The notes under the pieces: model-generated
What the model was told of the DNA's origin: nothing
Database searches by the model: none
The model's input: only the letters and a program-made list of their open reading frames with translations
Origin: Escherichia coli
Lineage (GTDB): Bacteria > Pseudomonadota > Gammaproteobacteria > Enterobacterales > Enterobacteriaceae
DNA length: 200 bases
Assembly: GCF_003334305.1 (NCBI RefSeq)
Contig: NZ_QOWS01000090.1
Strand: one strand, 5' to 3'
Shown: piece after piece, positions 1 to 200 of the stretch
Position numbering within the stretch: position 1 is the first letter of the stretch
How the letters are laid out: each line of letters opens with the position of its first letter
Translations under genes and position numbers: made by a program

Positions 1-68
1 GTGTATTTCCCGTTAGCCAGGTCATACGCGGCCTTAACGGCTTTTGGCGTTGCCGCCTGTGACTCGGA
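1..68. repeat. Copy A of a perfect direct repeat (68 bp visible, cut by the window start); part of a 132-bp in-frame tandem unit
   Basis: Seen in sequence: base-by-base comparison shows + 1-68 is identical to + 133-200 (68/68). The offset is 132 bp = 44 codons, so the repeat preserves the minus-strand reading frame. Identity reaches the window edge, so the true extent is unknown. Confidence 0.95.
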
Positions 69-200
69 AGTGCTGTTAGTCGCACTGCTGAGCTGAACTA
101 TCCCTTTCTGTGCTGTCGTTGCATCCTGTGCGGTGTATTTCCCGTTAGCCAGGTCATACGCGGCCTTAACGGCTTTTGGCGTTGCCGCCTGTGACTCGGA
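1..200 (-). CDS. stf: Internal fragment (partial at both ends) of a phage side tail fibre protein gene, lambdoid Stf-like, made of tandem 44-aa tail-fibre repeat units
   Basis: Seen in sequence: minus-strand frame with codons at + 198-200, 195-197 ... 3-5 is open for all 66 codons. The other two minus-strand frames have stops (TAG = revcomp of + 98-100; TAA = revcomp of + 166-168). All three plus-strand frames have stops (TGA 94-96; TAG 14-16, 77-79, 146-148; TGA 60-62, 192-194). The translation contains GIVQLSSATNSTS (+ 66-104) and ATPKAVKAAYD (+ 21-53 and 153-185). Established knowledge, from memory: these resemble the conserved phage tail fibre repeat of lambda Stf and E. coli prophage Stf proteins (Pfam Phage_fiber_2, accession not verified here). 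Composition is rich in Ala/Thr/Ser/Gln/Lys, typical of a fibrous shaft. The symbol is given at family level only; the specific paralogue (for example stfR, stfE, stfQ or lambda stf) cannot be assigned from 200 bp. No in-frame ATG or stop is present, so gene boundaries are outside the window. Confidence 0.8.
133..200. repeat. Copy B of a perfect direct repeat (68 bp visible, cut by the window end); part of a 132-bp in-frame tandem unit
   Basis: Seen in sequence: identical to + 1-68. It encodes the same peptide, SESQAATPKAVKAAYDLANGKYT, as copy A on the minus strand. Identity reaches the window end, so the repeat may continue beyond position 200. Confidence 0.95.

Follow-up and report, generated by a model that had tools for sequence, protein, structure and literature searches.

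An ESQ variant of the phage tail fibre repeat in lambdoid prophage stf genes of Escherichia coli, a probable minor natural allele

Side tail fibres and the PF03406 repeat

The side tail fibres of Ur-lambda are trimers of the Stf protein; the N-terminal domains build a collar on the tail, and the fibres make adsorption 10- to 30-fold faster without being essential (PMC12617516). In the model of Ur-lambda Stf, a proximal coiled coil (102-393) leads into a hinge (394-422), which is followed by a distal, gp37-like part that binds OmpC (PMC12617516). The single 'phage tail fibre repeat 2' (PF03406) unit of lambda ends near residue 390, a position that, compared with the hinge at 394-422, would place the unit at the junction of the proximal shaft and the hinge. 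For a related prophage protein of O157:H7, rotary-shadowing electron microscopy suggested that this domain, there called Pf2, is a globular knob between stalks, and the authors of that study stated that little was known about its structure or function (PMC3368898).

Fibres differ in how many PF03406 units they contain: lambda and StfR, the side tail fibre protein of the Rac prophage of E. coli K-12, have one, P2-like phages between two and four, and P1-like phages many. Lambda orf-401, K-12 StfR and P2 gpH have a common motif, STSETLAATPKAVK / SSATNSTSETLAATPKAVK, embedded in the sequences ...GIVQLSSATNSTSETLAATPKAVKVVMDETN (orf-401), ...GIVQLSSATNSTSETLAATPKAVKSAYDNAEK (StfR) and ...SSATNSTSETLAATPKAVKAAYDLANGKY (the P2 gpH unit). 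This is the form that a first-pass annotation of the DNA studied here, made from the letters alone, gave as canonical, and all three proteins match it. The same annotation took the reading of this DNA, E-S-Q in place of E-T-L, as a possible sign of a divergent family member.

The window and its reading frame

The window, by which the whole analysed stretch of 200 nt is meant, is open across all 200 bases in frame 0 of its reverse complement, and the translation reads SESQAATPKAVKAAYDLANGKYTAQDATTAQKGIVQLSSATNSTSESQAATPKAVKAAYDLANGKY. It corresponds to codons 479-544, plus the first two bases of codon 545, of a 986-codon gene of strain IAI1 (WP_024190505.1), and its residues 479-544 take in the end of the first PF03406 unit of that protein and nearly all of the second, of which the final two residues fall outside the window. 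The following features are distinguished, all on the minus strand:

1 to 200, minus strand: internal fragment of a lambdoid prophage stf gene, 100% identical to positions 8001-8200 of the IAI1 locus, within the CDS at 6567-9527
69 to 200, minus strand: one full period of 132 nt (44 aa), in the register SESQAATPKAVKAAYDLANGKYTAQDATTAQKGIVQLSSATNST (period-132 self-identity 68/68)
1 to 68, minus strand: first part of the following period, identical to 133-200, encoding SESQAATPKAVKAAYDLANGKY (translation and period comparison)
3 to 119, minus strand: second PF03406 (Phage_fiber_2) unit, residues 506-544 of 506-546 (Pfam, E = 9.2e-20)
57 to 65, minus strand: E-S-Q codons GAG TCA CAG of unit 2 (direct sequence reading)
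189 to 197, minus strand: E-S-Q codons GAG TCA CAG of unit 1 (direct sequence reading)

The 23-residue string quoted in the first-pass annotation, SSATNSTSESQAATPKAVKAAYD, is present in the minus-strand translation, where it spans 21-89. The motif had been assigned to positions 66-132; its content was read correctly and its location was not, since 66-132 encodes only TAQDATTAQKGIVQLSSATNSTS on the minus strand, and the E-S-Q codons are found at 57-65 and 189-197. Two other candidate features of the window were rejected. A plus-strand open reading frame at 1-96 (31 aa, GTG start) is antisense to the strongly supported coding frame and has no support of its own, and an RNA element received, from Rfam on both strands of the window, a single match at chance level (12.3 bits against a gathering score of 100, E = 0.53).

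The host gene and its neighbourhood

In every listed record with an exact match, the CDS is labelled 'prophage tail fiber N-terminal domain-containing protein'. In the full protein, Pfam assigns residues 1-134 to PF08400, the prophage tail fibre N-terminal collar domain (E = 1.3e-71), which lies outside the window but in the same ORF of each carrier with a full-length gene. A Collar domain was also matched by Pfam in the 986-aa protein, and the 94-aa chain of PDB entry 9e7m ('Tail fiber protein') matches residues 1-94 (E = 1.4e-51). The three PF03406 units are located at 462-502, 506-546 and 550-590 (E = 3.4e-20, 9.2e-20 and 9.8e-20, respectively), each covering model positions 1-41/42, and the PF03406 region aligns to structures of the Mu fibre protein gpS (5yvq and 8ju3, E ~4e-8). 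At the opposite end of the protein, the final 243 residues (744-986) align to the T4 gp37 tip, 2xgf (E = 2.8e-85), as a gp37-like tip with His-x-His repeats; the aligned region includes the segment HTHSVAIGSHGHTITVN. The PHROG matches are tail-fibre families, and NCBIfam gave no family above threshold for the full protein.

The surroundings of the gene are those of a lambdoid tail region. Its order in IAI1 is gpJ - Lom - stf - tfaQ - pinQ - ydfK - ynfT - truncated ydfJ, which is that of the Qin prophage site of K-12, and the succession J (gpJ) - lom (Ail/Lom protein) - stf - tfa recurs in IAI1, E2865, SM107, 21F61 and 3CM. Strain 7_12_30A has the four genes in this succession too, but stf and tfaQ are separated there by an inserted IS600 element (6466-7622 of its locus). 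By its domains and neighbours, the gene is a standard lambda-type side tail fibre gene, stf.

Comparison with described side tail fibres

Ur-lambda Stf, which corresponds to orf-401 plus orf-314 of lambda PaPa, resembles the host protein of the window in its gene position (J-lom-stf-tfa), its PF08400 domain, its Ala/Ser-rich shaft and its PF03406 unit. Orf-401 is 82.8% identical to residues 1-326 of the host protein, and the gp37-like tip of orf-314 is 71% identical to that of the host protein over ~230-250 aligned residues. Lambda differs in having one unit, SETL, where the host protein has three (SESQ, SESQ and SETL), and its DNA is only 79.6% identical to the window, over 98 nt.

Among the K-12 proteins, StfR (Rac, b1372) is 95.7% identical to the host protein over the first 494 residues, a stretch that includes the start of the first PF03406 unit, and it has tfa and pin neighbours as in the host locus; it differs by its single SETL unit and by a middle region unlike that of the host protein. 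StfQ (Qin, b1547) shares the site and the neighbours tfaQ, pinQ, ydfK, ynfT and ydfJ with five of the seven carriers described below, and its C-terminal 250 aligned residues are 77% identical to the host protein, but it is an N-terminally truncated remnant that lacks a PF03406 unit. At the DNA level, the best K-12 match to the window is stfR, with 77.6% identity over 107 nt. The Qin (stfQ) and e14 (stfE, stfP) regions compared gave no match to the window, in the case of Qin because StfQ is truncated at its N-terminus and has no PF03406 unit. The earlier suggestion that this DNA is no copy of a well-known K-12 gene is thus borne out by the comparison with StfR, Qin and e14. The divergence that was read into it does not hold: residues 1-494 of the host protein share 95.7% identity with K-12 StfR, and the gene usually occupies the Qin site, by tfaQ-pinQ-ydfK.

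The Stf of an O157:H7 prophage (WP_000268883.1) is 92.3% identical to the host protein over the full length and likewise has three PF03406 units. These read ESL, EML and ETL, and the first, SESL, is one nucleotide away from SESQ. The Stf of phage PhiR26_1 is 95.4% identical to the host protein in its first 538 residues and 96.7% identical in its tip, with two units, ESL and ETL, that both have Leu, not Gln, at the second position of the dipeptide. In the myophages, P2 gpH and Mu gpS share with the host protein the PF03406 unit, including the ...AAYDLANGKYTAQDATTA.KG... linker between tandem units; they differ from it in their N-terminal baseplate-attachment domains and in their tips. P2-like phages reach 81-91% identity to the window peptide, and all sampled P2 units read SETL, against SESQ in the window.

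The exact allele was found in none of 50,697 phage records, and nothing in them exceeds the 90-95% band by DNA or by protein. By DNA, mEp460, PhiR26_1 and PhiR42_1 come closest to the window, at 95% identity; by protein, the closest phages reach 90-95%. The ESQ allele is well sampled in bacterial genomes and not among isolated phages. A further phage record concerns the repeat itself: in vB_EcoM-813R1 (Punavirus), a tail fibre gene at 4308-7826 is annotated as four successive 'fragment' CDS, and 18 PF03406-like units are spread over all three reading frames at ~4929-7062. This is either a real frameshifted array or an assembly error in a highly repetitive gene.

The repeat array

Bases 1-68 of the window are identical to bases 133-200 at all 68 positions, a self-identity at period 132 that is far above chance, and the window contains ~1.5 copies of a perfect 132-nt (44-aa) tandem unit. 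On the full gene, Tandem Repeats Finder reports a period of 132, 2.3 copies and 92% matches. The three units of the protein read [SESQ][SESQ][SETL], so that the protein itself also contains the canonical motif, 44 residues downstream of the window.

The three units differ in how closely their DNA is related. From position 63 to the end of the 132-nt register, units 1 and 2 show no differences, which indicates, as far as the nucleotide comparison goes, a recent tandem duplication or homogenisation by gene conversion. As the two units are DNA copies of each other, both ESQ occurrences would go back to one event and not to convergence. Unit 3 (8193-8324 of the IAI1 locus) differs from unit 2 (8061-8192) at 32 of 132 nt, mostly by synonymous changes. 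This divergence of unit 3, next to the near-identity of units 1 and 2, points to a mosaic junction directly downstream of the window, with which it is consistent that the identity to the Stf proteins of K-12 (StfR) and PhiR26_1 stops near residues 494-538.

The repeat also leaves its mark on sequence records. Most of the cluster representatives matched by the window peptide are 'partial' tail fibre proteins from contigs of only ~220-330 nt, and the near-perfect 132-nt PF03406 DNA repeat evidently collapses or breaks short-read assemblies. Three ENA-derived fragments from the peptide search contain the strings SYTHLDVYKRQ, LSLIHIY and CIRDR, which we take to be translated Nextera transposase adapter, in which case their contigs would be chimeric with adapter. 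One cluster, of 58 sequences labelled Staphylococcus aureus, has the ending ...AVKVVMDETNRKAHWTVRH, as does the frameshifted orf-401 of lambda PaPa (4651-5856) at its C-terminus, and most likely reflects contamination of the assemblies with lambda DNA.

Variation at the two ESQ positions

The PF03406 core, G-[IVL]-[VT]-Q-L-S-S-A-T-N-S-x-S-E-x-x-A-A-T-P-K-A-V-K, is present in the window. All invariant or near-invariant residues (G, L, AAT, P, K, A, V, K) are kept, and only at the two x positions after S-E are the commonest residues replaced. Relative to the lambda and K-12 StfR motif, the Stf unit carries exactly two residue differences, T->S and L->Q, and the codons GAG TCA CAG stand where canonical units have GAA ACG CTT/CTG (E-T-L).

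The variability of these positions was assessed in 125 units from 120 cluster representatives, a sample biased towards similarity to the query. It comes from a search with the 66-aa window peptide that returned 222 candidates, nearly all of them short partial proteins, and was used for position variability only. The commonest tetrapeptide is SETL (65), followed by SESL (9), SETE (7), SEIL (5), SEML, SEVL and SETQ (4 each) and SESQ (3), with DETK, DEGK and DENQ among the rarer ones. The first position after S-E is T in 86 units, S in 16, A, V and I in 5 each, M in 4, and G and N in 1 each; the second is L in 92, E in 12, Q in 8, K in 6, M in 4 and V in 3, so that Q, E or K takes the place of 'L' in ~21% of the sampled units. 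When 24 motif positions are tabulated, five are invariant and many nearly so, and the two that follow S-E are among the most variable. Elsewhere in the family, ESL, EML and EVL are found besides ETL.

SESL, encoded by GAG TCA CTG, was read at both of the loci (an O157:H7 strain and EC21Z-137) sampled from the genomes that match the ESQ region with one to three mismatches, and at the protein level phage PhiR26_1 reads SESL too. By these codons, ESQ (GAG TCA CAG) is a single T->A change (CTG->CAG) away from the common and widespread ESL allele. This proximity, together with the tolerance of the two positions, makes the allele most likely neutral or nearly so; judged by the variation within the family, the T->S and L->Q changes are probably both of this kind, and ESQ reads as a minor natural allele inside normal family variation. 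The motif had been regarded as unusual, a view that does not agree with a one-nucleotide distance from ESL and with two changed positions that rank among the most variable. An exact database match, which the first-pass annotation itself had named as speaking against an unusual motif, was found as well, in genes known from annotation alone.

Carriers, integration sites and the state of the prophages

Among complete E. coli records, 257 contain the full window with 99% identity or more, and the 30 matches listed, IAI1 and SE11 included, are all 100% identical. For the counting of alleles in E. coli genomes, exact 60-mers were used as lower bounds. A total of 254 records (~4.7% of 5,426 complete genomes) contain the 60-mer around ESQ at 99% identity or above, a level that for so short a sequence amounts to an exact match, and 1,529 further records contain it with one to three mismatches; the corresponding 60-mer of K-12 StfR (SETL) attains the same band in 968 records. 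With exact matches in ~250 genomes, the ESQ reading is not a sequencing oddity. Nor did the suggested origin in a less-sampled lineage survive, given that the exact window occurs in ~250 of 5,426 complete E. coli genomes, among them IAI1 and SE11. The allele is already known, in that it is annotated in hundreds of genomes as part of a well-known phage tail-fibre repeat.

Seven carriers were inspected (IAI1, E2865, 21F61, 7_12_30A, PER12-33-A, SM107 and 3CM). The gene is at the Qin site in five of them, namely IAI1, E2865, 21F61, 7_12_30A and, as a decayed copy, PER12-33-A, and in another lambdoid prophage, adjoining yodB/zinT, in SM107 and 3CM. Six of the seven have an unbroken stf ORF of 972-986 codons, and all six share the array [ESQ][ESQ][ETL]. 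At the yodB/zinT site of SM107 and 3CM, stf (3456-6374 of each locus) has 972 codons, is accompanied by a different tfa gene and contains an exact copy of the window. The array in these two strains is best read, from the sequences compared, as a mosaic exchange of the 5' part of stf between prophages.

The prophages themselves are in various conditions. In the Qin-type prophage of IAI1, the gene for minor tail protein L is frameshifted (257-956) and the prophage interrupts ydfJ (12126-13409), from which it follows that this prophage is defective, although its stf is intact (986 codons). In PER12-33-A, the genes for terminase, portal, J, lom and stf are all reduced to fragments (3572-7416 of its locus). 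The IS600 insertion of 7_12_30A and the fragmentation in PER12-33-A are different stages in the decay of the same prophage. Given the defective state of the IAI1 prophage, it may be that the ESQ allele drifts in a cryptic prophage and does not serve a functional fibre.

Interpretation of the ESQ allele

Taken together, the window is very probably shaft coding sequence of the Stf of a lambdoid prophage, most often one at the Qin site, in which ESQ is a minor and, most likely, near-neutral allele. The N-terminal collar domain of the 986-aa protein would dock the fibre on the tail, and the long Ala/Ser-rich segment would correspond to the coiled-coil shaft of Ur-lambda. After this segment come the three tandem 44-aa PF03406 units, each of which may be a small structural module of trimeric form where the proximal shaft ends, beside the hinge. 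The T4 gp37-like receptor-binding tip, presumably folded with the aid of the downstream Tfa chaperone, follows. Receptor specificity would reside in this C-terminal tip and would not depend on the number of units, which would govern how long and how flexible the fibre is locally. A single-sequence AlphaFold2 monomer of the three-unit region has a mean pLDDT of 38.5 and a pTM of 0.30, which makes it unusable for judging the burial of the variant residues; at that confidence, its strand at GIVQL and its helix from SQAATPK onward are a hint only.

The near-neutral reading has to be weighed against one in which L->Q and T->S are mildly deleterious mutations accumulated in a decaying cryptic prophage, Qin, so that ESQ marks degeneration. 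Signs of decay do surround the allele: K-12 has a cryptic Qin with a truncated stfQ, IAI1 has a frameshift in the gene for minor tail protein L, the entire tail region with stf is fragmented in PER12-33-A, IS600 separates stf from tfaQ in 7_12_30A, and the allele is in no isolated phage of the 50,697 records. The gene itself behaves otherwise, as its ORF of 972-986 codons is intact in six of seven carriers and the [ESQ][ESQ][ETL] array is also found in a second lambdoid prophage, at the yodB/zinT site. Moreover, Q, E and K occupy the position in ~21% of the sampled units (ETQ, ETE, DETK), which argues that a polar residue there is compatible with the fold. Degeneration is, on this evidence, an improbable explanation of the two changes.

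The opposite reading, in which the ESQ units are adaptive and the substitution or the duplication alters fibre length, hinge behaviour or a contact under selection in certain lineages, could appeal to the presence of the change in both duplicated units, to the conservation of [ESQ][ESQ][ETL] across hosts and two integration sites, and to the variation of unit number among related fibres, from the single unit of lambda and StfR to the many of P1-like phages. The two units are DNA copies, however, and count as one event; shared descent explains the conservation of the array; and the receptor specificity of the family sits in the gp37-like C-terminal tip (PMC12617516). Adaptation by these units is accordingly given hardly any weight. 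There is a very small chance that the replacement of Leu by Gln, fixed in both copies of the duplicated unit, alters trimer packing or flexibility at the junction of shaft and hinge and yields a functionally distinct fibre variant. If this were true, [ESQ][ESQ][ETL] would be preserved while the rest of the Qin-type prophages decays, and might act as a store of fibre modules with which newly arriving phages could recombine.

The departure from the canonical motif is ordinary variation between alleles, at two positions of a well-known repeat that tolerate change. The perfect 132-nt tandem duplication offers a substrate for changes in copy number, and the SESQ allele provides a convenient marker for one Stf lineage, found mostly at the Qin site.
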